Shown here: positions 5,762 through 62,475 of the stretch, piece after piece
Layout of the letters: every line of letters begins with the position of its first letter
How positions within the stretch are numbered: position 1 is the first letter of the stretch
DNA from: Patescibacteria group bacterium
GTDB lineage: Bacteria > Patescibacteriota > UBA1384 > CAJBMM01
Length of the DNA: 64,000 nucleotides
Assembly (NCBI GenBank): GCA_041660565.1
Contig: JBAZWC010000001.1
Coordinates: 70,197 to 134,196 of the forward strand
Reading direction: 5' to 3'
Made by a program: the position numbers and the translations under genes
The notes under the pieces: model-generated
The model's input: the letters and a program-made list of their open reading frames with translations, nothing else
Database searches by the model: none
What the model was told of the DNA's origin: nothing

Positions 5762-5844
5762 GCAATTGCCTACGCACCTCTTATTTATCTAGTCATATGA
5801 AACATGCTGTTTTTTTGATAATGTGTAAAGTACGAATCAAAATA

Positions 5845-5975: not shown

Positions 5976-5977
5976 AA

Positions 5978-6305: not shown

Positions 6306-6324
6306 ATTTGAAACTGGAATCGGG

Positions 6325-6397
6325 CTGGGCTCCGCCCGTAGGGCTACGCCCGGAGGGGGTCCAGAGATCGGCAGTTCGAGTCTGCCATCCCCGACCA
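6325..6397 (+). tRNA. tRNA-Pro-like 3' portion: anticodon stem with a 24-nt palindromic insert in the loop, variable loop, T-arm GGCAG/CTGCC, acceptor 3' strand ATCCCCG-A-CCA. No local 5' acceptor or D-arm
   Basis: GGGGTCCAGAGATC identical to tRNA-Pro 39-48; compensatory T-stem and acceptor changes relative to 6229-6305; the expected 5' partner CGGGGAT was not found nearby. Confidence 0.4.
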
Positions 6398-6454
6398 TGA
6401 TATAATGAAGTCTGCGACTAGGCTGGCCTCCGGCTCTACGAGCGGTAGGCTCGG

Positions 6455-6499
6455 AGAGGGGTCCAGAGACCGCCAGTTCAAGTCTGGCTACCCTGACCA
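6455..6499 (+). tRNA. tRNA-Pro-like 3' half (TCCAG, AGACC, T-arm GCCAG-TTCAAGT-CTGGC, acceptor TACCCTG-A-CCA)
   Basis: Compensatory T-stem. The acceptor 3' strand pairs perfectly with the orphan 5' half at 5845-5851; the upstream sequence is a repeat module, not a D-arm. Confidence 0.4.
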
Positions 6500-6588
6500 T
6501 CCCTCGCTCCCTCCTACGCTAAAGCTTCGGAAGGTCAAGAAAGCTACGGATGGCACGGCCAAAAATTAAAAAAATACAAAGGATATGA

Positions 6589-7116
6589 ATGAAAATCAAT
6601 AAACTTAAAAAAATTACCACCGGTGCAGCTCTGTTGACTGGACTTTTTGTGGCATCGGTTCAATCCACTTTTGCGATGTGCCCGGTGTGCACGGTAGCGG
6701 TGCTTGGTGGGGTTGAGTTGTCGCATTATCTCGGAATCGATGATGTGATAACCGGGCTATGGATTGGTGCATTAATGGTTTCGATTACAATGTGGACATC
6801 AAATTGGTTGCGCAACAAAAAATGGCGTTATATTCCCAAAGGCGCCGCATTCTGGTTTATTATTTGGGTTTTAATGACTTATGTCCCGCTCTATCAATAT
6901 CGATTTTTTGGGCATAACAACAGCCAACTCTGGGGGATTGATAAAATTATCATCGGATCGATGTTTGGGGTGGTGATTTTTGCACTGGCGGTGGTGGTTC
7001 ATAATTGGCTTAAAGCCAGAAACGGTGATAAAGTTTACGTGCAATTTCAACGTGTCATTATCCCGGTATCATTTTTGATAATCGGCAGCGTGGCGTTTTA
7101 TTTCATTACTAAATAA
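6589..7116 (+). CDS. Hypothetical integral membrane protein with signal peptide
   Basis: 175-aa ORF; N-terminal signal LLTGLFVASVQSTFA; at least 4 hydrophobic segments. Confidence 0.5.
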   Translation: MKINKLKKITTGAALLTGLFVASVQSTFAMCPVCTVAVLGGVELSHYLGIDDVITGLWIGALMVSITMWTSNWLRNKKWRYIPKGAAFWFIIWVLMTYVPLYQYRFFGHNNSQLWGIDKIIIGSMFGVVIFALAVVVHNWLKARNGDKVYVQFQRVIIPVSFLIIGSVAFYFITK

Positions 7117-12064: not shown

Positions 12065-12093
12065 GATCAGAATAGCACAAATCTCTTTTATAT

Positions 12094-12204
12094 GTCATTT
12101 CGACGTTGAAGAAAGCGTCAGGTACTGTCATTCCGGGCTTGACCCGGAATCTATATAAAAAAAGTCATTTATAGACTGGATTCCGGATCTAGTCCGGAAT
12201 GACA
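12094..12204. repeat. Composite palindromic repeat (TGTCATTTCGAC fragment plus GTCATTCCGG double-hairpin unit)
   Basis: gtcattccgggcttgacccggaatctatataaaaaaagtcatttatagactggattccggatctagtccggaatgaca. Confidence 0.65.
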
Positions 12205-13219: not shown

Positions 13220-13324
13220 GTCATTCCGGACTTGATCCGGAATCTATATAAAAGACTGGAAGGGATTTATTCTTAGATTTCTCCAACACAGTCGTGGTGA
13301 CCCACTCCTAGGGTCGAAATGACA
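13220..13324. repeat. Hybrid palindromic repeat (GTCATTCCGG hairpin unit plus AGATTTCTCC...GGGTCGAAATGACA module)
   Basis: Shares both module types. Confidence 0.6.
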
Positions 13325-21416: not shown

Positions 21417-21827
21417 TTACTCCTTTATTTGTGGATTAAATAATATCATTAAACCAATTAGGATGAAGAAAATTGGCCAAAGCAGCCAAATTGCCAGGGC
21501 GAGAAAATTGGCGATTACTAACAGTATGCCAATAAATACCAGCGCCATGCCGATCATTTCGCTGTGTTTTCGCCAGTGAGACAAAGCAGACGAGTTAGAT
21601 GACTTTTGTGGTTGTTCCGGTTCTTTAGCTGCGCTGGCAGATTTTTCCGGTAGAATAACCAGTAAAATAATATATGCTATCACGCCTACGCCGTGTAGCA
21701 ATGCTAAAATAACAAATACTACGCGAATTATTGACACATCGATGTCAAAATAATCTGCCAATCCGGCACATACTCCACCAATCATTCCTTCAGCAGGGAT
21801 CTTGTACAATTGTTTGCTCATATTCAC
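21417..21827 (-). CDS. PspC-domain membrane protein
   Basis: GVCAGLADYFDIDVSIIRVVFVI matches the PspC N-terminal domain. Confidence 0.65.
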   Translation of the reverse strand: MNMSKQLYKIPAEGMIGGVCAGLADYFDIDVSIIRVVFVILALLHGVGVIAYIILLVILPEKSASAAKEPEQPQKSSNSSALSHWRKHSEMIGMALVFIGILLVIANFLALAIWLLWPIFFILIGLMILFNPQIKE

Positions 21828-21879
21828 CTCAAGTCCATGTTAGCATATCAAATTTCAGTTGTTAACCAACATAGCTAGC

Positions 21880-22012
21880 TGTCATTTCGACTCCTCGAGC
21901 ATTGTCTCGAGGGTGGAGAAATCTCAAAAAGAATTTGAAGGGACTTTTTCTTAGATTTCTCCAACGTGGTCGCTCGAGCCGGCTCCCCGGGTCGAAATGA
22001 CACTATGATGAC
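21880..22012. repeat. Complete about 130-bp palindromic element with 12-bp perfect TIRs TGTCATTTCGAC / GTCGAAATGACA and internal GGAGAAATCT..AGATTTCTCC repeat
   Basis: Read directly; near-identical element at 62354-62475; the right TIR abuts the transketolase start. Confidence 0.7.
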
Positions 22013-22014
22013 AT

Positions 22015-23894
22015 CGCACATAAAATCAAATACACTAAAACTAATGACTATTAATCAATACGAACAGCTAGCCAAAAGCTTGCGCTATTGGATTTTGCAG
22101 ATGACCTCTACTGCAGGCTCTGGTCATGTCACATCTTCGCTATCTGCGGTAGAGCTGATGGCCGTTTTGGCATCGCATTATCAATTTGACTTTGACCAGC
22201 CGCAAAATATGCACAATGACCGGTTGATTTTCTCTAAAGGTCACGCCAGTCCTTTATATTACGTGTTGTATGCGTGCATGGGGGCGATTGGCTTTGACGA
22301 GTTGTGGCGTTATCGTCAGCTTGATTCGACGTTGGAAGGGCACCCGACACCGCGATTTAAATACACTGATTTTGCTACCGGATCGTTGGGGATGGGGCTT
22401 GGGTTTGGATCTGGGTTAGCTTTAGGTTTAAGTCGACTTAACTCAACTGGGCGTGTTTTTGTTTTACTCGGCGATGGCGAACTGGCCGAAGGCTCGGTTT
22501 GGGAGAGCGCGGCATTTACCAGCCAGCATCATTTATCAAATCTCACAGCCATTGTGGATGTTAACCGTCTCGGGCAAAGTGCGGCCACGGCATATGGATG
22601 GGATATCAAAACTTATCAGCACAGATTCGAGGCGTTTGGCTGGCACGTAATAACGATCGACGGGCATAATATTAAAGAGATTGATGCTGCTTTCGGTCAG
22701 CTTGACTCACAAAAACCGACGGTTATTTTGGCTAAAACCGTTAAGGGTAAAGGCGTGTCCTACTTAGAAGATGAGCCAAATTGGCACGGCGTAGCATTAT
22801 CTGAGCCAGATCTTGATCAAGCCTTGTGTGAGCTGGGCGTGGTTCAGACTGATTTGACGGTAAAGGTCGCGGCTCCGAAAAAGACTATGTTGTTGCCAGA
22901 TACTACTGTTGCGATCAACGTGGTCGCTTCGGCAAACTCCCTGGGTCGAAATGACAAAGAAGGGGAGGTGCTCTCTCTGCGCCAAGTTTTTGGTCAAACT
23001 TTACAACAAATTTGCAAACAGAATGAAAAAATTATCGTTTTTGATGGCGATGTGGCTAACTCCACTTTCACCGCATTAGTCCGCGATAAACTGCCGGATC
23101 AATTTGTTGAAACTTACATCGCCGAGCAACAGATGATAGATGGCGCCGTCGGTATATCCAAAGCGGGGTTTTATCCGGTTGTCGCCACTTTTGCCGCATT
23201 TCTAACTCGCGCGTTTGATCAAATTCGCATGAGTGCCATATCAAATGCGAATTTACTGATTGTTGGTACTCATACCGGGGTATCGATCGGACAAGACGGA
23301 CCCAGTCAGATGGGGTTGGAAGATGTAGCGATGTTTTCGTCGATTCACCAGTCGACAATCATCTGCCCAGCCGACGCAATATCAACAGCAAAATTATTGC
23401 CAGAATTACTAAATCAAACCGGCATTAAATATTTGCGTCTGTTTCGGCCCGAAGTGCCAGCGCTTTACTCTATGGACGAGAAATTCGAGGTCGGTGGCAG
23501 CAAAATTTTACGAGAAAGCGCGGCCGATGTGGTGGCGATTATCGCCAGCGGGGTCACGGTTCATGAAGCGTTGAAAGCGTACGAAATGCTAAAAAATGAA
23601 AACATTGCGGTTAAAGTGGTAGATGCGTATTCCATTAAACCGATCGATACAGAAACGTTGCATCAAATATCGTCACAGGTAAAATATTTCGTTACGGTGG
23701 AAGACCATCGGTTGCAAGGCGGTTTAGGTGACGCGGTGTTAAACGCGTTTGTTGGCAGTAAATCAATTATCCCGCATATTACCAAATTGGGGATTGATGA
23801 GATTCCGCGTTCGGGCAAGCCTAATCAGCTAATGGACAAATATGGTATTTCCGCCAAAACAATCTATGATACAGTAAAGAAAATACGGAGTTAA
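22015..23894 (+). CDS. tkt: Transketolase (single fused polypeptide; N-terminal TPP domain and C-terminal domains joined by a linker containing a repeat-derived segment)
   Basis: SGHVTSSLS (SGH..S TPP-binding N-terminus), GDGEL motif and C-terminal transketolase-like region. Start placed at ATGATG 22015 because the ORF-track extension to 21966 is encoded by the repeat TIR. In-frame GGGTCGAAATGACA (22932-22945) encodes LGRND. Confidence 0.75.
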
Positions 23895-23896
23895 TA

Positions 23897-25276
23897 ATGG
23901 ATGAAAAACCCAAAGAACCGATGATAGAGCGAATCGCCGAAGCACCGGCAGAGGTTTTGGAAAAAACCGTCGAAATATCATCCAAAGTTGAGCACGCGGT
24001 AGTTGATCATGGCCCAATTAAAACCACGCGCGATTTTTGGCATAAATTAGGTCCGGGACTAACCACTGGTGCGGCCGATGACGATCCTTCCGGTATCACC
24101 ACCTATTCTCAGACCGGAGCTCAGTATGGCTTTGGGTTGCTTTGGTTGGCCGCCTTTACTTTTCCGTTAATGGCGATTGTGCAAGAAATGTGCGCACGTA
24201 TTGGCATGGTAACCGGGCAGGGCTTAGCGGCTAACATTCGGCATCACTTTCCCAAATCGATTATTTATATATGTGCGGTACTATTGTTTGCGGCCAACAC
24301 CTTTAACATCGGCGCAGACTTGGGGGCGATGGCGCAAGCAACTCAATTGTTAGCACCAAAGGCTAGTTTCGGATTATTAGTGGTTGGATTCACGGTTCTT
24401 TGCTTGTTGATGCAGGTATTTTTGAGCTACGCAACTTATGCCAAATATCTAAAATGGATGGCGTTGGTGTTGTTTGCCTATGTTTTCTCGGCGATTGCGG
24501 TGGGATTAAATTGGAACGATGTAATATTGCACACGGTTAAGCCCTCGCTTAATTTTTCTAAAGAGCAAATAATTTTGATTTGTGGTATTTTAGGTACCAC
24601 CATTTCTCCTTATCTATTTTTCTGGCAGACATCGCAAGAAGTGGAAGAGCAAATTTTGACTGGGCATACCTCAATCAAATCACGCCAATCAGAAGTTAAT
24701 GACGCGGAAATCAAAGATATGCGCATCGACATTTGGTCGGGGATGTTTTTGTCGAATATTGCGATGTTTTTCATTATTGCAGCCTGTGCAGCTACCTTAT
24801 TCCAGAACGGCATTAACAATATCGGTTCGGCGGCAGACGCGGCTGAGGCGCTTAGACCAATCGCCGGAAACGGCGCGTTTTGGCTGTTTGCTATCGGCAT
24901 TTTAGGTGTCGGTTTGCTTGGTATTCCGGTGCTGGCGGGTTCGGCATCATACGCGATTTCGGAGAGCATGGGTTGGCGTCAAGGACTGTATCGCAAACTC
25001 ACGTCTGCATATGCATTTTACGGCGTAATGATTATCGCCATGTTACTTGGGTTATCAATGAACTTTATTGGTCTTGATCCAATTAAAGTGCTAATTTATT
25101 CGGCGGTGGCCAACGGATTGGTGGCACCGGTAATTTTAGTGTTAATTGTGCTAATTGGGTCAAACAAAAAGATTATGGGCAGCAGAGTAAATCACCCCGT
25201 TACCACCTTTTTTGGCTGGTTAGTGACCGCGGTAATGGTGGTGGCCGGATTGGCGACCATATACTCATTTTTCTAG
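23897..25276 (+). CDS. mntH: NRAMP-family divalent metal (Mn2+/Fe2+) transporter
   Basis: GPGLTTGAADDDPSGITTYSQTGAQYGFGLLW (NRAMP DPGN-like motif region), about 11 TM helices. Confidence 0.8.
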   Translation: MDEKPKEPMIERIAEAPAEVLEKTVEISSKVEHAVVDHGPIKTTRDFWHKLGPGLTTGAADDDPSGITTYSQTGAQYGFGLLWLAAFTFPLMAIVQEMCARIGMVTGQGLAANIRHHFPKSIIYICAVLLFAANTFNIGADLGAMAQATQLLAPKASFGLLVVGFTVLCLLMQVFLSYATYAKYLKWMALVLFAYVFSAIAVGLNWNDVILHTVKPSLNFSKEQIILICGILGTTISPYLFFWQTSQEVEEQILTGHTSIKSRQSEVNDAEIKDMRIDIWSGMFLSNIAMFFIIAACAATLFQNGINNIGSAADAAEALRPIAGNGAFWLFAIGILGVGLLGIPVLAGSASYAISESMGWRQGLYRKLTSAYAFYGVMIIAMLLGLSMNFIGLDPIKVLIYSAVANGLVAPVILVLIVLIGSNKKIMGSRVNHPVTTFFGWLVTAVMVVAGLATIYSFF

Positions 25277-25379
25277 AAAGCAAATTAGGGGGTTAAGGGA
25301 GATTAGGGGGTAATTGGGTTTCCCCTTGTTATTTTACTCAGAGCACATATAATAGAATAGACAGAGGAGGAGCAACAAT

Positions 25380-28300
25380 ATGCATAAAAAATTGAATCAG
25401 TTAAAGGCTGATCTGAAGTTTTGGCTGTGGAAAACTAAGACACTCAACGCCAAAAGATATGTCTCAATTGTAGTATTGGTAGCAATGCTAGTTGGGGTGA
25501 GTATTTACTCACTAGGTGGTATCATCAAAAAAGTGGCGGCTGCTAACGCTGCCAGTGTTAACTTGCAAACCGGATCGATCACTGTTGACGGCGGTAATTT
25601 TTTGCTCGATAGTAACAAATGTCTTTGGACCACCGATTCCACCAGCACTATCTCTGTGGTTCAAAAAGACGGTTCGAATTTAAATTTACCGTATAATTTT
25701 AAGGGTAAGGTTTGTTTTGATGGTGTAATGAGTACCCCTACCACTCCTCAAGACGTAATTGTTCAAAACGGGGGAGTTCTATCTTTAATGGGGTCACACA
25801 CTTTTAAGACGCTTACAGTAAACTCGGGTGGCACAGTTACTCATCCACCAGCTGACGCGAATGGTAAAGCGGTACCGTACGGTTCGCGTTCGTTTATGTA
25901 CGCCATGCGTTTTACATTTTTTGTTAAAGTTGAGGCCCCAGCCGGTGATCCGACAAATATTAAACGGGTTTATCTAAAAGCACCAGACAGTAACGACTCG
26001 ATCGTTATTGAAGCTGGCGGGGGCGCGTTACCCGGAACATCTAGCGTAGATGATCCGGCCGCATTTAATCTTGGTTTAATCTCGTGGCACGCCAACAATG
26101 GCATAGGCTGTAACTTAATGGACGCATCGTTTAGAGCTAGTTCGTCTTGCGGCGGTACGTTACCTGCGGCAAACTTTAATACTGAAGCAGAGGTTGCGGT
26201 GTCGCGTGGTGGTGATTCGGTGCGCTACGTACCAATTAGAGTAACCACATGGCAATCAACATCAGATCAATTCTATAAGGTTGGATATCGAGAAACACTC
26301 CAAATTGGAGCGGGTGCGGAGACTCAGATTGCCAATAACCCACAATATTTACCGATCAGCTATATTTATGGACCATACGAAGGGCCAAGTAGCGAGTCGG
26401 GTACATTAACCGGTGCGGCGGATCCAGCGGCGCAATACAAATCTCGATTCGAATATGCTCAAGCACCAATCGATCAAGCCGATTATTCAAGCTTGGGATC
26501 GAATGGTTGGGGATTAATTAGTAAAGATCTCTCTACTTTTAGAATCTGGTCGTCGTCTCAAAACCGCTATGTCGATCAAGTTGCCAAACCAACCTATTCA
26601 TTCTTTTCTCGGGTTGATTTAACTAACAACGGTACATTTAAAGATTTTGGTAAATACGATTGTACCGGGCATTGCACTAATGTAAACGATGCGTTTTATT
26701 TTGATTATAACGATCCGAGTAGAACCAGTGCCGGTAATCCGTTTTCAAACTCACAGCGTAAAGATGGTTACGGCTATTTGATTGGGGCAAACCCGGGTGC
26801 TTCAACATATGATCCATTGGAGCCAAATGTAGCCTTATTACAAAACTATAAACTACAGACCCACAGTGATGCTGCGCCGGTTATAAAGCCCAGTGTTACG
26901 TTGCATGTTACCGGGGCCGTTACGTTAAACGGCGGCTTAATTGACACCACTAATAAGGGATTACCTGGTGGGTTTACTTACGGTGGTCCAAACAATAGCG
27001 ACAGCAAGTATGGTTTTGCCGGTGTTGGTGGTAAAGGTAATTCATCACCAGGCTGGTGGTACGCTTATGCAGACTGTGATAATAGTAATATTGGTATTCA
27101 GGGTAGTAACTGGTCGGATGGTAATGGTGGTGGTGGCGGCCCAGCCAATAAATCATGTACCGATGTTATTGGTTTAGCAGGCGGCGGTGGCGGTATGGGC
27201 TACGGTGGATCGGGGAAAACCTATGTTGACAGCAACTCTGACAGCGTCTACAACTTAAATAACACAAGAGGAAGTTATTACTCTCACGGTCAAGGTGGGG
27301 CTGGTTTATATGGTATCGGCGGCGGATTTGCTCAAAATTCAGGCACAGGACAATATCAAGCTGTTGCCAATTATGACTCGATGATTCACGGTTATTCATA
27401 TCGTGAAAGATACACCAGTTCAACTGCCGCACTATTAGGTGGCGGTGGTGGTGGAGGTACCGACGCAGGGGCTCCTACTGGAGTATCTCAGCGGTTTGAC
27501 GATGGATCGTTCCCGGCCGGCTCCGGTGGTGGCGCTATTTTGCTAACAGTTGACGGTGATATGACATTATCGGGTAACAGTACAGTCAGTGCTAGCGGTG
27601 GTAACGGATGGGATGTTTCAAATCCAGGAGGTGGCGCCAATCATTATGCAACTACGTCTGGTGGTGGTGGTGGATCAGTCATCCTAAGTGTGAGTGGTAC
27701 CATCAATCTAGCCAACACCTCTATTATTAAAGCAAACGGTGGTAACACTTCTGGCAGATGTTTTGCATCAAGCGGAAATGAATGTGGAGTCCCCGGAGAA
27801 GGTGGCGGCGGTTTGGTTCGAATTACCGCTTCGGTTTTCTCTGGTGATGGCTGGATTTTTGCCCCAAATAATTACTGTGATGTTAATGGCGCTTATGTCG
27901 GAATCTTAAGTAATTCGGTTCAGGCTGCGGCGGGTAGAGGTACGGCTAGCGGAGGCAGTTTGGTTATGGCAGACGGCAGCGATGCCTACGGCCAGGTCTC
28001 GGAACACGGAATCGTTGACCTAAAGTACGCCGGTAATATACCATTCTGTGGTTCGGGGCTTGGGGCTGGTACCGGCATTCAAATCTCAAAACAGATTGAG
28101 CAATTAAGCAGCGCACCAGCCGAAGGTTCAGCGGCCGTAGCAAGCGCGAATGGTAATAATGTGGTCACGGTTACCAACGGATCAATCCTGCGCGTTACTA
28201 TCACTGTTTCCAATCTATCTACAACCAACCAAACTGTTACAATTTCCGATGTTTTACCGAAATCAACTATGACTCTTGGTACTACATCGCCAGCAGTCAC

Positions 28301-29120
28301 CCTTACCTCCGGGCTGCAGTTTGACGGGAGTAACGACTACGTTGTAGTCCCGGGTAATGCTGGTTTACGCATGACCACACTAACCCTTGAAGGTTGGATA
28401 AATACTACATCCGGTGCATCCAGTTATCCGCTTAACTATGGTGCTTACGGTTTCCAAATTAATAAATGGAGCTCAGGCGGTGCACTTAGCCTATTATTTA
28501 CTAATCAGTATGGGGTAGGAGAGGAATGTATATCGAATCGTTCGGTAAATGATGGGAATTGGCATCATATTGCCGGTACTATTGATCAAGCTAATAAAAA
28601 ATATTCTATCTACATCGATGGCGCTCTGAGTAAAGCGTGTACCATGAATGCCAATATTAAATACTCCTCAACCGAATCGTTGTATTTTGGAACTGGTAGT
28701 CCTACTGTTGGAAGGTTTAACGGCAAGTTAAATGAAATTAGGGTTTCAAACAATTTGCGATATACCGGGAATTATACTCCGAGTAATCACTTTAACACCG
28801 ATGCAAACACTATTGGTCTTTGGCACCTAGATGGTGTTGCCGGTAGCACCACTGCTACTGACTCATCCAGCAATGGCAACAATGGAACCCTAATGAATGG
28901 CGCTACTAACTCTCCACCTGCGAATGGTTCAACCGATGGCCCGGTTTGGCTGTACGACCCCGATACTGTTATTCCGCCGGTGAATGGACTGGTTTATGTC
29001 TATAACTCTACCAGCTCCGATTTTACCCCAACAGTATCAAGCGGTAAGTTTTCCCAATCCGGGATTGCGGTTGCTGCCGGTTCGTACACCATTCTAAGAT
29101 ATGTCACAGTAATTAAATAA
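25380..29120 (+). CDS. Very large (1246 aa) secreted/anchored glycine-rich repeat protein (beta-helix-like GGxGG tracts) with C-terminal LamG/concanavalin-A-like lectin domain
   Basis: N-terminal hydrophobic anchor; tracts GGGGGPANK, GGGGGMGYGGSG, LLGGGGGGGTDAG, SGGGGGSVIL; C-terminal LQFDGSNDYVVVPGN...LTLEGWIN...GNWHHIAG typical of LamG_3. Confidence 0.55.
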   Translation: MHKKLNQLKADLKFWLWKTKTLNAKRYVSIVVLVAMLVGVSIYSLGGIIKKVAAANAASVNLQTGSITVDGGNFLLDSNKCLWTTDSTSTISVVQKDGSNLNLPYNFKGKVCFDGVMSTPTTPQDVIVQNGGVLSLMGSHTFKTLTVNSGGTVTHPPADANGKAVPYGSRSFMYAMRFTFFVKVEAPAGDPTNIKRVYLKAPDSNDSIVIEAGGGALPGTSSVDDPAAFNLGLISWHANNGIGCNLMDASFRASSSCGGTLPAANFNTEAEVAVSRGGDSVRYVPIRVTTWQSTSDQFYKVGYRETLQIGAGAETQIANNPQYLPISYIYGPYEGPSSESGTLTGAADPAAQYKSRFEYAQAPIDQADYSSLGSNGWGLISKDLSTFRIWSSSQNRYVDQVAKPTYSFFSRVDLTNNGTFKDFGKYDCTGHCTNVNDAFYFDYNDPSRTSAGNPFSNSQRKDGYGYLIGANPGASTYDPLEPNVALLQNYKLQTHSDAAPVIKPSVTLHVTGAVTLNGGLIDTTNKGLPGGFTYGGPNNSDSKYGFAGVGGKGNSSPGWWYAYADCDNSNIGIQGSNWSDGNGGGGGPANKSCTDVIGLAGGGGGMGYGGSGKTYVDSNSDSVYNLNNTRGSYYSHGQGGAGLYGIGGGFAQNSGTGQYQAVANYDSMIHGYSYRERYTSSTAALLGGGGGGGTDAGAPTGVSQRFDDGSFPAGSGGGAILLTVDGDMTLSGNSTVSASGGNGWDVSNPGGGANHYATTSGGGGGSVILSVSGTINLANTSIIKANGGNTSGRCFASSGNECGVPGEGGGGLVRITASVFSGDGWIFAPNNYCDVNGAYVGILSNSVQAAAGRGTASGGSLVMADGSDAYGQVSEHGIVDLKYAGNIPFCGSGLGAGTGIQISKQIEQLSSAPAEGSAAVASANGNNVVTVTNGSILRVTITVSNLSTTNQTVTISDVLPKSTMTLGTTSPAVTLTSGLQFDGSNDYVVVPGNAGLRMTTLTLEGWINTTSGASSYPLNYGAYGFQINKWSSGGALSLLFTNQYGVGEECISNRSVNDGNWHHIAGTIDQANKKYSIYIDGALSKACTMNANIKYSSTESLYFGTGSPTVGRFNGKLNEIRVSNNLRYTGNYTPSNHFNTDANTIGLWHLDGVAGSTTATDSSSNGNNGTLMNGATNSPPANGSTDGPVWLYDPDTVIPPVNGLVYVYNSTSSDFTPTVSSGKFSQSGIAVAAGSYTILRYVTVIK

Positions 29121-29122
29121 TT

Positions 29123-30898
29123 ATGATGAAAACTTTACAGCAAAAAATTTCATTCTGGCTAATAGTTCTGGCATGTATCAGTTTGTCTGGGGTGATAAGT
29201 GCTATACCAAAATCACGCGCAGGTAGCTTAATTGCCATTACCAAATCTATCATCAATACCGCCGCGGCGGTCAACACCGATGCTAGCTATAGTTCAGTAG
29301 TTTCGGCGGTTAGCTCAAGCGATGTGTTGTTAGTTACGGTTACCGTAACTAACTACGGGTCTTCGCCAACTGTCACTATTAACGATAGTTATGCCGGTTT
29401 TTCTACTCCGGTTACAAATGGGACCGTCAGTGATACCGCGTTAGGATGGAGCGGTGGTGGTGGCTCATTTAGCTCAGTTAACAGTGTTCTGACTGTCACA
29501 TCGCCAACAATGGTTAGTGGTACCACTAAAAGTTTCTCCTACACCATTACCCCAGCTAATATGCCAAATAACAAACCTAGAATGTTGGCTCTACCAATTT
29601 CTACCACCTCATCTAATTTTGGTATAAGCCAAATGATGGACACGGTATATGTAATGGAATTGCCGAATTCAAGTGCGGCTGGTAGTTCGTTTGTGGCAAA
29701 TACTTATAACAACGCCAGTGGTGGAATTGACCTAAGTTTTGTGGTTCCGGCGGTGAGTGTTCTAATTGGCAACACCACGCTTTACAGCTCAACTACTACT
29801 CTATCTACACCAAAACAAGATTCAACCGTTACCGGAAATAATTCAACTGATTGTAATAGCATTACCATTAGTTACTCCCGTGGAGGTAGCTGTATGTACA
29901 ATACAACGGCTACGGTATCCACTGTAATCAACGCTAAAACTGTCACGGTTGGTAGCGCTTCGGCACAGGTGATGACGGTTCCACCAAGTGCAATTGTTGG
30001 GAACATCAAGGTTGGGGGGTCAACAGCGGCTGTTGGTAACGTTTTATTACCTGGCCAACATCTTAGCAGTAATACCGATAGTTCGTCTGCATCACAAAGT
30101 ATTGCGTATAGTATCGACTCAAATTCTGTCAGTGGATTGAAGGGTTCCGGAGACTCCGATGTTTTTGGTAACGTGTATCTAGATGCAAATCTGGCATTAG
30201 CCAAACGAAACCCTGACTTTTTGTTAGATAACGCCAGCTATACCTCATATGGAGACTTAATTAATGTTGGGGAAAGTAACATAAGTTTATCGTGTGCGGC
30301 TGGTGCGGGTAACAACTGTGGTGCCGGTGGTACTCCGGCAACTGCCAAATATGTGTTATCTGCTAAAAACGGCCTAAATTTTGACCTAAGCTCCATAAAA
30401 ATGTCTAACATTACATCTACGCCAAAAAACCCAAAGAACAGCGGCTATCTCTGGTATGTTAAGGGTGATCTTACTATTACCGGATTAGTTGCAAGCACCA
30501 CCATTACGAATGTTGGAATTGGTACCATATTTGTAGAAGGCAAACTAATAATTTCCGATCTTTCCGTTTCTGCCACTGGTAAGCCACTTGGGTTTATTGC
30601 AACCAACGGGATTGAATGGAAAATTGATAGAGCCGATGTTACTTCATCCACTTTAAATTCCGTGGCTTTCTTTAGTAACCTAGACTTTACAGCTTCCACC
30701 ATCGCCGCAAGTCAATCGCTGAAACTGGTCGGTAGTGTCGTGGCTCGTCAAACTGTTAGTTTTGCAGATGTAAAATTACCCAATATTTCGGATAATTTAA
30801 ATTTGTTAATTCAGTATGACCAAGCCTTAACCACAAATCCTCCTCCACGTATGTCAAAATTGGCTACTCAGCCAAGTGCAAGTGGCGTATCACAATAA
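29123..30898 (+). CDS. Secreted Ser/Thr-rich hypothetical protein (591 aa)
   Basis: Signal peptide LIVLACISLSGVISA; extremely S/T/N/V-rich, low-complexity. Confidence 0.5.
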   Translation: MMKTLQQKISFWLIVLACISLSGVISAIPKSRAGSLIAITKSIINTAAAVNTDASYSSVVSAVSSSDVLLVTVTVTNYGSSPTVTINDSYAGFSTPVTNGTVSDTALGWSGGGGSFSSVNSVLTVTSPTMVSGTTKSFSYTITPANMPNNKPRMLALPISTTSSNFGISQMMDTVYVMELPNSSAAGSSFVANTYNNASGGIDLSFVVPAVSVLIGNTTLYSSTTTLSTPKQDSTVTGNNSTDCNSITISYSRGGSCMYNTTATVSTVINAKTVTVGSASAQVMTVPPSAIVGNIKVGGSTAAVGNVLLPGQHLSSNTDSSSASQSIAYSIDSNSVSGLKGSGDSDVFGNVYLDANLALAKRNPDFLLDNASYTSYGDLINVGESNISLSCAAGAGNNCGAGGTPATAKYVLSAKNGLNFDLSSIKMSNITSTPKNPKNSGYLWYVKGDLTITGLVASTTITNVGIGTIFVEGKLIISDLSVSATGKPLGFIATNGIEWKIDRADVTSSTLNSVAFFSNLDFTASTIAASQSLKLVGSVVARQTVSFADVKLPNISDNLNLLIQYDQALTTNPPPRMSKLATQPSASGVSQ

Positions 30899-31100
30899 CG
30901 CCAAATTATAAATTTTAATAAGTTCGAATAAACGTAGACCACGCTTTAGCGTGTTTGGAAAACAGACTGACCTCCTACGCCAAGGCTACGGATGGTCAAG
31001 AAGTCTGGACTACGATCTTTAGAATTTACTTTGTTGTTACTTGCGCAATCATTAAGTATTGTCATATAATTAATAGTAGGAAATAGAGGGGCCAAACAGT

Positions 31101-31841
31101 ATGATAGATGTCGATCTGGTAACAAAACCAGGGTCTAATCAGCCTTTTCAGGGTGAGTCTTATTGGGGGATCGCCACTATTGTGGTGATTGTCTGTACTG
31201 TCGCGTCACTTGGTTTGCTAGGCTGGTATGTAATGAAAAATTCTTCTACTAAACAAAAGATCGCAAACCAAACCACTGAATCTGCCCGACTAGATGGTGA
31301 AATTTTGGCTGCCAATAAATGGCCGGTTGATACGGTTGAATTGCGATCAAAAGATCTGTTAGGTAGTTTAACCGAATATAAAACTTTGTTAAACAGTCGA
31401 CAGGCGTGGAGCAGAATTTTGCCGGTGGTTTCAGCTTCTACCCTAAATGGAATTAATCTAACCGGAATGAGCATAGATGGAAAACTCGCTCTCAAAATTG
31501 ATGGTACCGCATCCCCTATAAGCGGTGTGGATAACATTACGGCGTATGGAATGGTAGCTAGGCAGGTTATCTCATATCAAAATGCCAAAATTACTATATC
31601 TGATACGTCTGGCGCAACATCCACCACAGAAGTAGCCCCGGTGCTGGTATTTAGCAATGTGGCGTTGACCGCAATTAGTAAAAATTCCAAAGCAGCCACG
31701 CAAGACGCAACTCCAATAGACTCGGCGTTGTTCTCAATTAGCTTAAGCTTGAATCCCGAGATTGTTAAAGAATCGCCGCTTGCACTTCCGTCTACCACCA
31801 CTACTGCTTCACCGTCACCTAGTGCATCAGCTACCCCATAA
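31101..31841 (+). CDS. PilN-like pilus assembly membrane protein (tentative)
   Basis: Short cytoplasmic N-terminus, single TM (IATIVVIVCTVASLGLLGWYV), periplasmic domain; position directly upstream of the PilO-like gene. Confidence 0.35.
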   Translation: MIDVDLVTKPGSNQPFQGESYWGIATIVVIVCTVASLGLLGWYVMKNSSTKQKIANQTTESARLDGEILAANKWPVDTVELRSKDLLGSLTEYKTLLNSRQAWSRILPVVSASTLNGINLTGMSIDGKLALKIDGTASPISGVDNITAYGMVARQVISYQNAKITISDTSGATSTTEVAPVLVFSNVALTAISKNSKAATQDATPIDSALFSISLSLNPEIVKESPLALPSTTTTASPSPSASATP

Positions 31842-31856
31842 AACGAAAGGGATATT

Positions 31857-32453
31857 GTGACCAAGCAACAAAAAAATATTATCATGATTGCAATTCTGGT
31901 AGTTTTGAGTGCTTTTGCGCTTATCCAACTTTGGATTGGCCCGCTACTGCAAACAAATTTGACCCAGCTAAATCAGCTTAACGCAGATGTTAACGCAAAA
32001 ACTGCTCGCTTAAACACTATTAACAAGATTAAAGCGCCGTTAGCCGACCTGGAATCTGCAATGAGTGATATCGATAAAGTTGGTTTGCCAAAAGGAAACT
32101 CGTTGCCAGACTTAATTGAGCAAGTGGAAAATATTGTCGCCGGTACAAAAGATGCCGCCAGCAACCAACCATATTTTTCTGTTACCTCGTTTGTTCCTAA
32201 CTTAACCAACGCAGTTAACTCGGCGGGGGCGTCGGCATCAGCTAACTCGCTAGATTTCACCTTGGCTGTTAGAGGAAACCCAGACAATCTTGCTATATTA
32301 CTAGACGCGTTTAACAAGAACGTCCGCCCAATGTCAGTAAAAAGTATGACGCTTGCCCCCGATTCTACTTCTAGTGATGTGTTAGTAACCCTAACTATGA
32401 CGGCGTATAATGGTGCCGCATCGTCAACAAAATCTTCCACCGCAAGTCAATAA
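31857..32453 (+). CDS. PilO-like pilus assembly protein (tentative)
   Basis: N-terminal TM plus coiled-coil (LTQLNQLNADVNAKTARLNTINK) architecture typical of PilO. Confidence 0.4.
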   Translation: MTKQQKNIIMIAILVVLSAFALIQLWIGPLLQTNLTQLNQLNADVNAKTARLNTINKIKAPLADLESAMSDIDKVGLPKGNSLPDLIEQVENIVAGTKDAASNQPYFSVTSFVPNLTNAVNSAGASASANSLDFTLAVRGNPDNLAILLDAFNKNVRPMSVKSMTLAPDSTSSDVLVTLTMTAYNGAASSTKSSTASQ

Positions 32454-32471
32454 TACTTTAAGGATGACGTA

Positions 32472-32744
32472 ATGAAAAAATATATTCCAATTATCGTTAG
32501 CGTACTAATGGTTTTGGTGGTGGTAGGCGCCTTTGTGTATCAAAGAGGACTCTTTTTAGCTAGTCCGAGTATGGAACCGGTAATTACCAGTTCAACAACC
32601 GCTGATTTGTCGGCTGAATCAATTACCAGCGCCAAAAAAATGGCTGACTTGTATAAATCAAGCCTAAATAAAGTATCGTCAGTTCCGATTTCAATTGATA
32701 CTTTAAGCACTAACCCGAAGCCGTTATTTAAAGTTTCAGAATAG
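32472..32744 (+). CDS. Small membrane-anchored hypothetical protein
   Basis: 90 aa, N-terminal TM helix. Confidence 0.35.
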   Translation: MKKYIPIIVSVLMVLVVVGAFVYQRGLFLASPSMEPVITSSTTADLSAESITSAKKMADLYKSSLNKVSSVPISIDTLSTNPKPLFKVSE

Positions 32745-32751
32745 GTCTTAG

Positions 32752-35670
32752 ATGAGTGCGTGGCCAATCAAAAATGAAACTCAAAGCCGGGTTTTAAAGT
32801 TATTATCAACCTTGGTTGATTTAGGTTTTGTTAAATCTGAAGTAATTGACAACTTAAGAGCTGAGCTAAAACCGCTTCCATCCGAGGTTGAGCTGGTTGA
32901 GTATTTAGTTAAGCATTTGATTGCCGATTACGACCAGATTAATCGCGCCTATGCCACCTTATTAAAATTACCGTATTTGCAACTACCACAAGAGGTAAAT
33001 AAAGCGTCGCTCATAAAATTACCAAAAGCTGTTTGTGAAGAAAAACAGATGGTGGTTTATGGGACAAATGACAAAGAATGGGATATTGCGGTGGCAAAGC
33101 CGGCTTTATTGCAGGAGAGCCAATCCGGTGTTCTGACTAAATTATCTAAAGCAGAAAAGATCAAATATAAAATCGTAATTACTTCGCCTGATTCAATAAA
33201 AAGATGGCTTAATCAGTATCCGGATCAGAGGACGGAGGACGGAGGACAGAAGACAGAATCATCTCTGTCATTTCGACCCGGGGAGCTGGTTCGAGCGACC
33301 ACGTTGGAGAAATCTCAAGAAAGAATCCCTTCCACTTTAGCCAATTCAGAAAAAGCGGCGTTGATTGGTCGAGCGATTGACCCGAAAGTACTACATAAGA
33401 TTCCGGTGGCCATCGCAAAAGACGTTGGCATTATTGCATATCAGTTTAGAGATAATGTTTTTGAAGTTGCAACAGTAGATCCAATGAGTCAAAAAGTACT
33501 AAACGCTGTTCATTACATTCAAGATCATAACAACGTTAAAATCAATTTACACCATACATCGCGTGACGATATTGATTACGCTATTTCGCAGTATGGGCTT
33601 CATGACCGCATCTTTAACCAAAAAAATCTGTCCGGGCAGAAAATTGATCACGAGCTTTTGTTAAAAATACCTTACAATGTGGCAAAAAAGTATCGTTTTG
33701 TGGTGTTTGGTAAGATCATTACAAGCCAAGGATTAACTGACAATTCAATTTATCAAGTTGCGTCAGACAATCTAAATAATGCCGAGGCAAATATTATTTG
33801 GGGTTATATTGAAAAGAATAACGGGGTTACCCTGTATTTGTACCCAACCGATATCGGTAGCATTGACTACGCGTTGTCTTTATATCCGGAAACAACCGAT
33901 CACAAAGAACAGCTCGCGTTACCGGGCGTTAAAAAAGCTGAGTGGTTATTGCCGCCACCCGTTCCTCATAATCCAGTCCCTGCAACAGCAGCGGTAGTTA
34001 AACCGCAAGCCAAGCCTAACCCTCAAAACGAACAACCTTTGCCGCCCACAGATATACCGGAAGAAAAGCCATCTTTCTGGCCCAAATGGTTAGTTTCATT
34101 GTTTGGTGGTAAAAAAGACAACGAGATTATAATTTCGGAAGATCTTATCTCGCCACCAGGTACTGTACCGAACGCGGCTACATCGGCAATGTTAGGAAAT
34201 CCAAATCCAACTCAACCGCCAATACCGGTGCCGACAAAACCGGCAGAGGTAAAACCACCCGAACAAAAACCACCGAGTCCTGCTCCTGTTCCTCCAAAAC
34301 CCCCTGAAGAGGTGGCAATAGAGCAAAAGACATTTATTCTTAAGACTAAAGAACCCTATGGCGCCAAAGAGAAAGAAGCTGCCCCAAAGCCGGTGGGGGA
34401 AGAAGACGAAGATAACTTAGGGAGCTTGCTTGACCACGATGTAACTACTCTGGAAGAACTGCAGAAGATAATTCAAGAAGGATTTGTACCACGAGTGGTG
34501 GCAGCGCTAGTCAGTTATGCCATCACTTTACACGCCTCAGACGTTCATATCGAAGCAGAAGAAAAAGATGTCCGCGTGCGTTATCGTGTGGATGGTATGT
34601 TGCAAGACGTAATGCGATTACCGGTAGAACAACACGCTGCCATTATTAGTCGTATTAAAATATTGTCCAAGCTGAAAATTGACGAAACTCGTATTCCTCA
34701 AGATGGGCGATTTGACGTAGCGTTTAAAGATCGTGCGGTCGATTTGCGTGTATCATCTATGCCAACGGTGCATGGTGAAAAGATAGTTATGCGTATTTTA
34801 GACAAGACGCATGGTATCATGTCACTGGAAGATTTGGGTGTACTGGGTAGAGCATTTGACATTGTTATCGAAGCCATTAAAAAACCATATGGCATTGTGC
34901 TTTCAACTGGTCCAACCGGATCTGGAAAATCCACCACTTTGTATGCCATTTTAAACCGAATCTCGGTGCCTACGGTCAACGTAATCACACTTGAAGATCC
35001 GGTTGAGTATGAAATAGCCGGGGTTAACCAAGCGCAGATCAAACCAAAAATTGGTTTCACTTTTGCAGAAGGGTTAAGATCGGTTTTGCGCCAAGACCCA
35101 AATATCGTGATGGTGGGAGAGATTCGAGACGCTGAAACCGCCAGCATGGCTACCCACGCAGCCTTAACCGGTCACTTAGTATTATCTACCCTACACACCA
35201 ATGATGCTCCTGGTGCCCTACCACGTCTAATAAATATGGGTATTGAGCCATTCCTAATTACCTCGTCAATTAACTGCGTTGAAGCTCAGCGCCTGGTTCG
35301 TCGAATCTGTCCGAACTGTAAAGAAGAAGTTGAGCTGCCGGAAACGGTTATTAAAGAGATCACCGATGAGCTCAATAAGATACCGGAAAATAATCCCAAA
35401 GATCGTGCCCGGGTGACAAATCCGATGAAGTTCTATCACGGTAAAGGATGCGACAAGTGTCAAAACGGATATCGTGGGCGAATTGGTATTTACGAAGTGA
35501 TGGCCATGAGCGAAAAGGTGGAGCAACTGGCAATCGAAAAAGCATCTGCCGCCTCTATTCAAGCTCAGGCAATTAAAGAAGGCATGATTACCATGAAGCA
35601 AGACGGATTGCTAAAAGCACTAATTGGTATGACCACGGTTGATGAAGTGTTACGCGAAACCTCGGAGTAG
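32752..35670 (+). CDS. pilB: Type IV pilus assembly ATPase PilB/GspE family with extended N-terminal region (about 600 aa: repeated T2SSE_N-like segments and a Pro-rich linker)
   Basis: Walker A GPTGSGKSTT, Walker B/Asp box, His box, tetracysteine CPNC...CDKC; contains an in-frame repeat insertion at 33229-33336. Confidence 0.85.
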   Translation: MSAWPIKNETQSRVLKLLSTLVDLGFVKSEVIDNLRAELKPLPSEVELVEYLVKHLIADYDQINRAYATLLKLPYLQLPQEVNKASLIKLPKAVCEEKQMVVYGTNDKEWDIAVAKPALLQESQSGVLTKLSKAEKIKYKIVITSPDSIKRWLNQYPDQRTEDGGQKTESSLSFRPGELVRATTLEKSQERIPSTLANSEKAALIGRAIDPKVLHKIPVAIAKDVGIIAYQFRDNVFEVATVDPMSQKVLNAVHYIQDHNNVKINLHHTSRDDIDYAISQYGLHDRIFNQKNLSGQKIDHELLLKIPYNVAKKYRFVVFGKIITSQGLTDNSIYQVASDNLNNAEANIIWGYIEKNNGVTLYLYPTDIGSIDYALSLYPETTDHKEQLALPGVKKAEWLLPPPVPHNPVPATAAVVKPQAKPNPQNEQPLPPTDIPEEKPSFWPKWLVSLFGGKKDNEIIISEDLISPPGTVPNAATSAMLGNPNPTQPPIPVPTKPAEVKPPEQKPPSPAPVPPKPPEEVAIEQKTFILKTKEPYGAKEKEAAPKPVGEEDEDNLGSLLDHDVTTLEELQKIIQEGFVPRVVAALVSYAITLHASDVHIEAEEKDVRVRYRVDGMLQDVMRLPVEQHAAIISRIKILSKLKIDETRIPQDGRFDVAFKDRAVDLRVSSMPTVHGEKIVMRILDKTHGIMSLEDLGVLGRAFDIVIEAIKKPYGIVLSTGPTGSGKSTTLYAILNRISVPTVNVITLEDPVEYEIAGVNQAQIKPKIGFTFAEGLRSVLRQDPNIVMVGEIRDAETASMATHAALTGHLVLSTLHTNDAPGALPRLINMGIEPFLITSSINCVEAQRLVRRICPNCKEEVELPETVIKEITDELNKIPENNPKDRARVTNPMKFYHGKGCDKCQNGYRGRIGIYEVMAMSEKVEQLAIEKASAASIQAQAIKEGMITMKQDGLLKALIGMTTVDEVLRETSE
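33229..33336. repeat. In-frame repeat insertion within pilB: (GGACGGAGGAC)x3 microsatellite plus TGTCATTTCGACCCGGGGAGCTGGTTCGAGCGACCACGTTGGAGAAATCTCAAGAAAGAATCCCTTCC
   Basis: About 95% identical to the intergenic copy at 37072-37141; translated as ...QRTEDGGQKTESSLSFRPGELVRATTLEKSQERIPS... without interrupting the reading frame. Confidence 0.7.
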
Positions 35671-35688
35671 GCGGAGAGCGCAATTATT

Positions 35689-35872
35689 TGTCATTTCGAC
35701 CCGAGGAGATCGTCAGATCGACTACGTTGGCCTCCGGCTCGTAGACCCTCCGGGCGTAAGTCCTACGGGCTGGAGCCTACGGCTCGGAGAGAGAAATCTA
35801 AGCAAGAATCCCTTCCAGTTTTTTTTAAGATTTCTCCAACCGTTCGTGGAAGCTCACGGGGTCGAAATGACA
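35689..35872. repeat. Large composite palindromic element (TGTCATTTCGAC TIRs enclosing a CTACGG module and AGAAATCT..AGATTTCTCC)
   Basis: Read directly, between pilB and pilT. Confidence 0.7.
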
Positions 35873-37071: not shown

Positions 37072-37141
37072 TGTCATTTCGACCCGGGGAGCTGGTTTGA
37101 GCGACCACGTTGGAGAAATCTAAGAATAAATCCCTTCCAAG
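37072..37141. repeat. Half-element repeat (same sequence as the pilB in-frame insert)
   Basis: ttgtcatttcgacccggggagctggtttgagcgaccacgttggagaaatctaagaataaatcccttcc. Confidence 0.65.
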
Positions 37142-40662: not shown

Positions 40663-40704
40663 ATACTTTAGGGGTGTTGGGGTGATTTGGGGAGTTGTGA
40701 AAAA

Positions 40705-40913
40705 ACCCTTCTCCTCTGGAGGAGAAGGTGGAACGCTAAGCGTCCCTTGACCCCGCTTAGCGGGGTGCCCGTAGGGCGGATGAGGAGCTCCTCACCTCTC
40801 CGAGCCGTAGGCTCCAGCCCGTAGGACTTACGCCCGGAGGGTCTACGAGCCGGAGGCCGGTCTTCGACCACCCTCTCCTCAAGGAGGAGAGGGAAACCGA
40901 GGAGTCGAAATGA
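40705..40913. repeat. About 210-bp mosaic palindromic element (CTTCTCCTCTGGAGGAGAAG; GGAACGCTAAGCGTCCC; CCCCGCTTAGCGGGG; GAGGAGCTCCTC; CTACGG module; CTCTCCTCAAGGAGGAGAG; ..GTCGAAATGACA)
   Basis: An inverted copy lies at 44826-44975 and a related copy at 60455-60650; overlapping ORF 40668..41153(-) judged spurious. Confidence 0.7.
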
Positions 40914-40965
40914 CATGTGAATCAAAATATATGTTACAATAAACGTAACACCGGAGGGGATTAAT

Positions 40966-44794: not shown

Positions 44795-44975
44795 TTCTAA
44801 GCACTAAGCACTAAATTCTAAAATGGATGTCACTTTTGTCCCCTCTCCTCGTGAGGAGAGGGTGGCTGTAAGCCGGGTGAGGAGCTCCTCATCCACCCTA
44901 CGGGCACCCCGCTAAGCGGGGTCAAGGGACGCTTAGCGTTCCACCTTCTCCCCGAGATGAGAAGGGTATTAGCAT
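44795..44975. repeat. Inverted copy of the 40705-40913 mosaic element (lacking the central CTACGG module) preceded by a TAAGCACTAAAT microsatellite
   Basis: The reverse complement of 44826-44975 aligns with 40705-40790 and 40866-40913. Confidence 0.7.
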
Positions 44976-49050: not shown

Positions 49051-49158
49051 AAAAATTTTATCCCGAGTATACCTCGGGAATCCCTTATTCCGGATATTGT
49101 AATTCTACCATATTAGCCAAAATAAGTCAAACATGGGGACGCGTCCGGAAATTATTAT

Positions 49159-49450
49159 GTCATTTCGACCCGGGGAGCTGGCTCGAGCGACCACGTTGGC
49201 CTCCGCTCGTAAAGCTACGGCTTGGAGAGAGAAATCTGAGAAAGAATCCTTTCCACCATTAAATTAGATGCTTCGCATCGAAATCACTCGCAATTTGCTC
49301 GCGATTATCAAATTTCAAATTTCAAATTCTTGCTCGAGGTGTGCGCACCGAGAACTCTGTGATGCGATGTGAAATAAAGGTAGTTCTCGCTATGCTCGAA
49401 CAAGAAACACGAGGTGGTCCTCGCCTCGGTACGTTTTACGCCCTAAACTT
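49159..49450. repeat. Composite repeat: TGTCATTTCGACCCGGGGAGCTGG.. half-element plus CTACGG module plus AAATTTCAAATTT microsatellite plus GAGAAC/GTTCTCG palindromic module
   Basis: Read directly. Confidence 0.65.
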
Positions 49451-62207: not shown

Positions 62208-62353
62208 TTTAATCCCTTCTTTAATTTATTCTAAGCATAGATTAATGTGGGTTACAGTAGCGTTTGGCTATTGTACCAATCCCGGTCAAGATGGTCAAGT
62301 AGGTTTGACACGTGAATTAAGAAACCTATTAAGTGAGCTAATGTTTCACTCTT

Positions 62354-62475
62354 GTCATCTCGACTCCTCGAGCTTTGTCTCGAGGGTGGAGAGATCTCAA
62401 GAAAGACTGGAAAAGATTCTTTCTCAGATTTCTCCAACGCAGTCGATTTGACAATCTCCTCGGGTCGAAATGACA
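62354..62475. repeat. Complete about 120-bp palindromic element (TGTCATCTCGAC..GTCGAAATGACA)
   Basis: About 85% identical to 21880-22012. Confidence 0.7.

Follow-up and report, generated by a model that had tools for sequence, protein, structure and literature searches.

How does a copy of a short repeat found mostly between genes come to be translated inside a gene for a pilus ATPase, and what kind of element is it? The question is raised by a 64-kb window of a Patescibacteria genome (the window being the whole stretch of DNA analyzed, to which coordinates and copy counts refer), in which a 972-aa open reading frame (ORF), pilB, contains a segment related to repeats elsewhere in the window. 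A reading of the DNA letters alone, called here the sequence-only reading, had taken this segment for a Rickettsia-like palindromic element inserted in frame, and had seen a further repeat-derived segment in a transketolase gene (tkt). Our analysis favors, with a probability of about 0.8, a tolerated passenger: a hairpin unit resembling the repetitive extragenic palindromic (REP) sequences would have inserted into linker-encoding DNA of pilB while the repeat was expanding in this lineage, with the frame kept open.

The pilB copy starts with TGTCATTTCGACCC, ends with AATCCCTTCC, and reads as a whole TGTCATTTCGACCCGGGGAGCTGGTTCGAGCGACCACGTTGGAGAAATCTCAAGAAAGAATCCCTTCC(ACT). Self-BLAST of the window matched it to an intergenic copy at 37072-37139 (94.2% identity over 69 nt, close to the approximately 95% noted earlier), to 49158-49199 (97.6%, 42 nt), and to 21937-22002 (92.5%, 67 nt). 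The sole long ORF at this position is pilB, which crosses the copy without a stop codon and translates the unit as residues 172-195 (...LSFRPGELVRATTLEKSQERIPS...); the repeat-derived segment encodes SFRPGELVRATTLEKSQERIPS, and residues 159-195, which also take in a heptamer tract just upstream, include the peptide TESSLSFRPGELVR. Logan contig L001 (run SRR18595301) was identical to window positions 22752-35755 at all 13,004 positions (100% identity), and this base-for-base match indicates that the in-frame junction is not confined to a single assembly. The uninterrupted frame reported by the sequence-only reading was thus found intact, with no frameshift in the identical independent assembly.

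The host gene product is predicted to be a PilB/GspE-type pilus assembly ATPase. Pfam detected the T2SSE core at residues 576-968 (E 1.6e-126) and an N-terminal MshEN (MshEN/GSPII_E_N) domain (E 3.4e-19); the protein starts with three MshEN-like domains, followed by a Pro-rich linker and then by the T2SSE ATPase core, and the gene lies in a pil cluster in which PilT, PilC, two pilins, a prepilin peptidase, and minor pilins follow downstream. The insert lies between MshEN domains 1 and 2 and hence, as had been stated, in the N-terminal extension upstream of the ATPase core.

A word-index protein search with PilB gave a best match of 47% identity in the C-terminal half, and the same search with the N-terminus alone gave no match. 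An ortholog of 998 aa (P0143) was recovered by an exhaustive search of cluster representatives. BLASTP aligned it collinearly with PilB from residues 7 to 971 at 48% identity, with the same three MshEN-like domains, Pro-rich linker, and a nearly identical ATPase core. The linker between domains 1 and 2 (from the conserved ...YP to ID...) comprises 22 aa in P0143 versus 51 aa in PilB, and the gaps (6 + 4 + 19 = 29 residues) fall exactly over the heptamer tract and the unit. When pilB was aligned at the DNA level with L154, the contig encoding P0143, approximately 87 nt were missing in the relative, and the ACAGAA (Thr-Glu) codons immediately 5' of the unit were in the same frame. L154 is syntenic with the window (PspC, tkt, Nramp, a large protein, four small ORFs, PilB, PilT, and PilC); neither TGTCATTTCGAC (2 mismatches allowed at most) nor TGTCATYYCGR occurs in its 15.9 kb, which are free of notable repeats, and its pilB-pilT spacer is a repeat-free 68 nt. 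Judged from this alignment, the pilB repeat is an insertion specific to the source lineage, as the sequence-only reading had supposed. Because the collinear P0143 has a repeat-free linker, the single-ORF architecture with three domains is older than the insertion.

When PilB was modeled with AlphaFold2 on the basis of 20 homologs, the three MshEN-like N-terminal domains were folded, with predicted local distance difference test (pLDDT) values of 80-93, and the ATPase was confidently predicted. Residues 160-208, which cover the unit and most of the heptamer-encoded residues, formed coil between folded domains (pLDDT 23-48), and the insert is predicted to sit in a disordered inter-domain linker. 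The transketolase model had a mean pLDDT of 90.3; its least confident internal stretch, a coil at residues 301-310 (pLDDT 56), lies within a region without secondary structure from 277 to 320 that contains the repeat-derived fragment (residues 303-317). Both segments are thus modeled in low-confidence inter-domain coil.

The tract preceding the unit had been read as three copies of an 11-mer, (GGACGGAGGAC)x3, and proved instead to be a heptamer array, translated as ...QRTEDGGQKTE... (residues 159-169). It is unique within the window and imperfect (88% matches, only two copies identical); the relative L154 has one GACAGAA-like stretch at this site. The unit is free of stop codons in the frame used and also in several other frames. 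The intergenic copy at 37072 carries a TGA in the frame of pilB, at the sole C/T difference within the first 50 nt, and the family consensus at this position is C. Since a unit of 70-71 nt shifts the frame by itself, extra insertions or deletions must have accompanied its arrival, and heptamer duplications, each contributing a shift of +1, may plausibly have helped to keep the frame of pilB. As a separate observation, gain or loss of one heptamer would shift the frame past the first MshEN domain, and phase variation is conceivable.

Table 1. Coordinates of pilB, tkt, and the repeat copies in the 64-kb window.
Feature	Position	Strand	Evidence
71-nt singlet repeat unit in pilB	33266..33336	+	Sequence match, copy alignment, self-BLAST
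pilB, predicted type IV pilus assembly ATPase, 972 aa	32752..35670	+	Pfam, AlphaFold2 model, ortholog alignment
Heptamer tandem array (4.6 copies, period 7) just upstream of the pilB unit	33226..33257	+	TRF (Tandem Repeats Finder)
tkt, predicted fused-type transketolase, 628-629 aa	22005..23894	+	Pfam Transketolase_N, Transket_pyr, Transketolase_C
Truncated unit (terminal 41 nt) in tkt	22916..22956	-	Self-BLAST, copy alignment
123-nt inverted doublet of two units that differ in their hairpin tips, PspC/tkt spacer	21880..22002	.	-52.3 kcal/mol, z = -4.65
123-nt inverted doublet, intergenic	62353..62475	.	-50.7 kcal/mol, z = -4.74
184-nt doublet, pilB-pilT spacer, CTACGG-type repeat nested after GTTGG	35689..35872	.	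Copy mapping
70-nt singlet, pilT-pilC spacer, closest to the pilB copy	37072..37141	+	Self-BLAST
Singlet with nested CTACGG-type repeat, intergenic (BipA / GtrA-like gene)	49158..49257	+	Self-BLAST
68-nt intergenic singlet beside TGTCATTCCGG-type unit	13257..13324	-	Copy alignment
Terminal unit fragment, repeat-rich pilD / minor-pilin spacer	40902..40915	-	Terminus match
Terminal unit fragment, intergenic	12093..12106	+	Terminus match

Alignment of the copies (Table 1) defined a basic unit of approximately 70 nt, in which TGTCATTTCGAC is followed by a variable hairpin tip, next by (T)GGAGAAATCT, and last by a tail with AATCCCTTCC at its end. Units start with TGTCAT(T/C)(T/C)CG, and a sister family, TGTCATTCCGG...CCGGAATC, has the TGTCAT start in common. 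The 14-nt terminus occurs 13 times at up to 2 mismatches versus 0.43 expected, a count reached in 0 of 100 shuffles, and the broader terminus TGTCATYYCGR occurs 22 times versus 0.31 expected. Units are present as singlets (33266, 37072, 13324 on the minus strand, and 49158) and as inverted doublets. The doublets have perfect 12-nt terminal inverted repeats (TIRs; TGTCATTTCGAC/GTCGAAATGACA), start with TG, end with CA, and fold as one long hairpin (z about -4.7); the singlets are without TIRs, and the singlet fold was no better than that of shuffled sequence (z = +0.8). The copy in pilB is such a singlet and not the complete palindromic element that had been placed there. Fifteen of the 17 loci are intergenic although coding sequence makes up 82% of the window (binomial P = 5e-10), an excess that reflects selection against coding copies, and self-BLAST of the window located copies within Pfam-supported genes in pilB and tkt only. 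Pfam scans of the window ORFs of at least 90 aa revealed no transposase and none of the REP-associated tyrosine transposases (RAYT).

A second repeat family, of the CTACGG/CCGTAG type (35731-35790, 49199-49224, and 5880-5975), carries GTAG like classical REPs. Inside TGTCAT units, its members are nested at one and the same point, immediately behind GTTGG; they also follow GGTTGG in a tRNA-like stretch described below. These positions suggest a preference for insertion at ...TTGG^, and, as the nesting shows, this family still moved once the TGTCAT units were already present. Two longer inverted repeats bracket parts of the pil cluster: one of 63 nt (100% complementary, 35729-35791 / 40796-40858) encloses the 5-kb block pilT-pilC-pilins-pilD, and another of 95 nt (95% complementary, 40702-40796 / 44876-44970) encloses the 4.1-kb minor-pilin block. 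They are possible substrates for the inversion of pilus gene blocks.

The second intragenic locus lies in tkt, annotated by NCBI as 628 aa (homologs, 610-620 aa). Here translation runs through the fragment on its opposite strand, giving ...NVVASANSLGRND... (residues 303-317 of the 628). It shares 85.7-88.1% identity over 42 nt with other copies, including an exact 14-mer, a similarity that, on sequence grounds, cannot be due to chance. The repeat terminus that the sequence-only reading had located in frame in the linker is real, the tkt copy being read as ...SLGRND; the position of the terminus is 22943-22956 rather than 22932-22945, a difference of 11 nt. The PP-Pyr linker measures approximately 34 aa, within a range of about 27-50 aa among homologs, in all of which the linker varies in both length and sequence, and the linker of the syntenic relative is at least as long. 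Of the proposed lineage-specific insertion in tkt, the repeat origin therefore held, and no net length was gained relative to homologs: the fragment is repeat-derived DNA that provides approximately 14 codons of a hypervariable linker, without demonstrable net insertion. It is probably a copy of this kind that is older or has been trimmed. The idea that tkt arose by fusion of split N- and C-terminal subunits, with an intergenic repeat as the linker, was rejected, because close homologs are all fused (~610-620 aa) and have an equally long variable linker.

A complete element of 130 bp had also been described as abutting the tkt start codon. The doublet there measures 123 nt and ends 2 nt before the first tkt ATG (22005); the six-frame tkt ORF does run into it. 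Alignment with homologs indicates that the real start may lie farther downstream. In addition, tkt and Nramp (21417-25276) have the same order beside PspC as in L154 (1-3457), yet both are on the opposite strand there, and identity to L154 is 71% for Nramp and only 51% for tkt, less than the 58% shared with an unrelated database homolog. These data suggest that the tkt region was rearranged and tkt possibly replaced, with the 123-nt doublet at the PspC/tkt junction.

To place the unit in a wider context, one genome per species was scanned with the pattern TGTCATTTCGAC-N18-34-GGAGAAATCT, which yielded at least 120 loci. Those listed include Clostridia, Planctomycetota, Bacteroidota (among them a cultured Mucilaginibacter), Chloroflexota, Patescibacteria, Thermodesulfobacteriota, Treponema (Spirochaetes), Nitrospirota, Omnitrophota, Coriobacteriia, and others, the identity of the termini across phyla being due in part to the exact search pattern. 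In other genomes, an ATTTC/GAAAT stem closes the minimum-energy fold around the variable tip in 93 of 133 distinct units, an inverted partner lies within 160 nt in 67 of 127 units (median doublet, 117 nt), and variant-stem units (TGTCATCCTGAGCG, TGTCATTCCGAGG) adjoin motif copies. Rfam contained no family for the window element at the gathering threshold, for the doublet in a permissive scan, or for 18 loci from other phyla, and literature searches by sequence string and by topic found no description of this repeat. Among ORFs beside copies in other genomes (n = 150), no family was enriched and no transposase was seen in the best 25 of 165 families. GUC...GAAA strings raised the possibility of hammerhead or other small ribozymes, which was discarded since there is no CUGAUGA core and no Rfam match.

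A metagenome scan with the lineage-specific terminus gave 32 loci, the source genome not being among them. When 183 motif matches were screened for open frames extending far to either side and the candidates inspected, two credible further in-frame cases were left. In dnaX of a Saccharibacteria metagenome-assembled genome (L084, CAYQPT010000023.1), a complete 107-nt doublet (5576-5682) is read in frame as ...VISTDLSRRAKAEVEKSLDERSLDSSSKDDIARDDK... between domain III (242-371) and DnaX_C (465-543). In a soil metagenome contig (L137, Ga0134126_10007964), a saccharopine-dehydrogenase-like ORF (5623-6939) has a pair of terminal fragments in tandem, ISPKVEMTGEKISPGVEMTN, within its NADP-binding domain, and the domain match is approximately 24 residues longer than the model. 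Translation gives SFRPGELV... in pilB (plus strand, frame 2), VISTDLS... in dnaX (plus strand, frame 1), ...SLGRND in tkt (minus strand), and ISPGVEMT in the saccharopine-dehydrogenase-like gene (another minus-strand frame); four cases in four frames and on differing strands mean that there is no conserved peptide. Other candidates were set aside: in L135 the DNA match is coincidental, the TPGVEMTG motif being native to the transketolase N-terminal subunit encoded there, and the high-GC loci with long frames (L010, L017, L058, L118, and L147) were spurious or upstream of a start. We tentatively entertain, at rather long odds, the broader idea that TGTCAT units form an undescribed class of REPIN-like mobile hairpins, widespread across phyla and recurrently captured as coding DNA for disordered linkers in small Patescibacteria genomes (pilB, tkt, dnaX).

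We considered that the state of pilB could have arisen as follows. Small noncoding hairpin repeats would have expanded in the source Patescibacteria lineage, and one singlet would have landed in the DNA for the disordered linker between MshEN domains 1 and 2, possibly through a transposase that recognizes single-stranded hairpins, as we infer from the case of REPINs. The copy may have survived owing to a linker without a fold, a unit without stop codons, and accompanying small length changes that kept the frame. The unit would now supply approximately 24 linker residues and, together with the heptamer tract, make the linker 29 aa longer than that of the ortholog. Most likely, the PilB insert has no function of its own and is a neutral passenger. 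Several points weigh against this account. L001, the independent assembly, may stem from reads of the same sample, and PilB with the insert is known here from the gene alone and not as a made or active protein. The sole ortholog available is distant (48%), so that the empty site cannot be reconstructed to the base, and the order of unit insertion, heptamer duplications, and other length changes is not recoverable. The tkt linker is no longer than those of homologs, its 'insertion' resting on DNA similarity only. Finally, with no mobilizing gene among the window ORFs of at least 90 aa or enriched among the best 25 of 165 families beside copies elsewhere, mobility is read from architecture alone.

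Other explanations account for part of these data. The overwhelmingly intergenic position of the copies would suit a gene fusion, in which a copy between an MshEN-only gene and a shorter pilB became coding when loss of a stop merged the two ORFs, and the nearest word-index homolog, P0002, indeed has just two MshEN domains. P0143, however, unites three MshEN domains and a repeat-free 22-aa linker in one ORF; an architecture that predates the insertion rules out a fusion across an intergenic copy, and this largely refuted scenario is hardly credible. An artefact, either a misassembly at the repeat or a decaying pseudogene with an open frame by chance, must be weighed because repeats break assemblies (the Logan contig itself stops at the next repeat, at 35755) and because a unit that is stop-free in several frames makes an open frame not improbable. 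We regard it as very unlikely: the two assemblies are the same at every base across 13 kb, and the insertion of 70-71 nt is frame-shifting, yet 784 codons downstream are open with a full-length T2SSE match. Identity to the ortholog is nearly continuous downstream, and the N-terminal domain upstream of the insert is conserved as well.

The insert might instead have been exapted, the heptamers serving as a slipped-strand phase switch or the repeat regulating the pil operon through RNA or DNA structure. A period-7 tandem repeat within a pilus gene would be in keeping with this, as would the three family copies within or between pilB, pilT, and pilC. Two identical heptamers, however, make a poor substrate for slippage, the singlet has no better fold than shuffled sequence, copies are scattered beside unrelated genes, and the other in-frame copies differ in frame and strand with no conserved peptide; such a function is improbable. 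The remaining alternative concerns the class of element. The doublets, with their perfect 12-nt TIRs, TG start, and CA end, could be classical MITEs (miniature transposable elements with inverted repeats), which would derive by deletion from an insertion sequence (IS) that has a DDE transposase and TG...CA ends. Inspection of the flanks revealed no target-site duplications at three doublets (AGC before and CTA after 21880-22002, TCT and ATA at 62353-62475, ATT and GGT at 35689-35872) or at singlets. Units often stand as discrete singlets whose 3' end is defined, each arm forms its own hairpin with an independent tip, and no parent IS was seen in the window. We therefore consider a MITE origin unlikely and retain the passenger account with a REP-like unit.

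Further repeats and a large gene were observed elsewhere in the window. A tRNA-Pro(GGG) gene (6229-6305) is followed by two extra copies of its 3' half (6347-6397 and 6449-6499), each after a CTACGG/CCGTAG-type repeat; upstream, a stretch resembling a tRNA 5' half (5846-5880) is followed by repeats of the same type (region to 5975) and then by a small ORF. These half copies could be integration remnants or tRNA genes disrupted by repeats. Between 14100 and 17800, a 72-nt direct repeat occurs four times (15045, 15767, 16717, and 17483) as a GC-rich hairpin followed by ...GGGGACTTTGTAGATGA, and an 85-nt repeat occurs twice (15865 and 16813), approximately 100 nt downstream of two of the 72-nt repeats. 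The ORFs of this region have no Pfam match and overlap on both strands; the repeats may be leaders, present in several copies, of a small family of paralogous genes. The minus strand at 52784-59161 encodes a 2125-aa RHS-repeat protein (RHS_repeat E 3.4e-77, DUF6531) that resembles polymorphic toxins.

The in-frame repeat of PilB is a fresh example of a known phenomenon. It indicates that compact Patescibacteria genomes can carry bursts of selfish hairpin repeats and that disordered inter-domain linkers are sites where repeat DNA survives inside genes. It also extends the picture drawn from Rickettsia palindromic elements (RPEs) to a second reduced-genome lineage and to a REP-like element type. 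In practical terms, such repeats break assemblies, lengthen six-frame ORFs (as in tkt, which runs into the upstream doublet), and give rise to spurious peptides and to 'inserts' confined to one lineage when PilB, Tkt, and DnaX are aligned. The broad spread of the core motif suggests an uncharacterized mobilizing or binding partner.

Among known systems, intragenic bacterial MITEs (ERIC, BOX, Correia, and others; Delihas 2007, as cited in PMC10969869) are comparable as small repeats with open frames and occasional in-frame fusions to host genes. ERIC, BOX, and Correia elements differ in having target-site duplications and/or recognizable IS-derived ends, and the sequences are unrelated to those found here. 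Of the hallmarks of a classical MITE, the doublets show TIRs and lack a target-site duplication. We know of no ERIC, BOX, or Correia-type family described from Patescibacteria.

RPEs (Ogata et al. 2000) are presented in a 2024 review (PMC10969869) as an extreme case of intragenic MITEs, each family encoding a conserved peptide; in its account they are complete palindromes of about 100-150 bp, and in some families nearly half of the copies are intragenic. The likeness lies in small non-autonomous repeats kept in frame in housekeeping genes of a reduced genome at sites compatible with the fold, the insertion sites in PilB, tkt, and dnaX being in linkers or between domains. In contrast to RPEs, the pilB copy is a singlet and the tkt copy a 41-nt fragment, a full in-frame doublet being seen only in Saccharibacteria dnaX; frames and strands vary among insertions without a common peptide; and only 2 of 17 loci are intragenic. 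Rickettsiales were absent among the at least 120 motif loci listed, RPEs being compared by description. The resemblance to Rickettsia-type elements proposed by the sequence-only reading thus stands as an analogy in the tolerance of in-frame copies and fails on the complete palindrome, the common frame, and the peptide; it is best treated as a functional analogy only, membership in the RPEs not being supported. The accompanying statement that such tolerance is rare and known mainly from RPEs was overstated, given that the same review calls in-frame fusions by intragenic MITEs 'not unusual' and that two more in-frame copies were found elsewhere.

REP sequences and REPINs, the latter being REP doublets that form hairpins (PMC3116915), offer the nearest parallel. 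As in the present family, their unit is a short, imperfect palindrome that occurs singly or as an inverted pair, the two arms flanking a brief spacer and folding together into one long hairpin; a strong extragenic bias, the absence of target-site duplication, and lineage-specific expansion are likewise shared. The differences are a 5' end of TGTCAT instead of GTAG, a core motif present in many phyla where REP families are usually lineage-specific, and translation in frame, which is not typical of REPs; RAYT, the Y1/HUH transposase, was not among the window ORFs of at least 90 aa. Taken together, the architecture of the repeat family that reached the pilB linker is closest to that of REP/REPIN elements.

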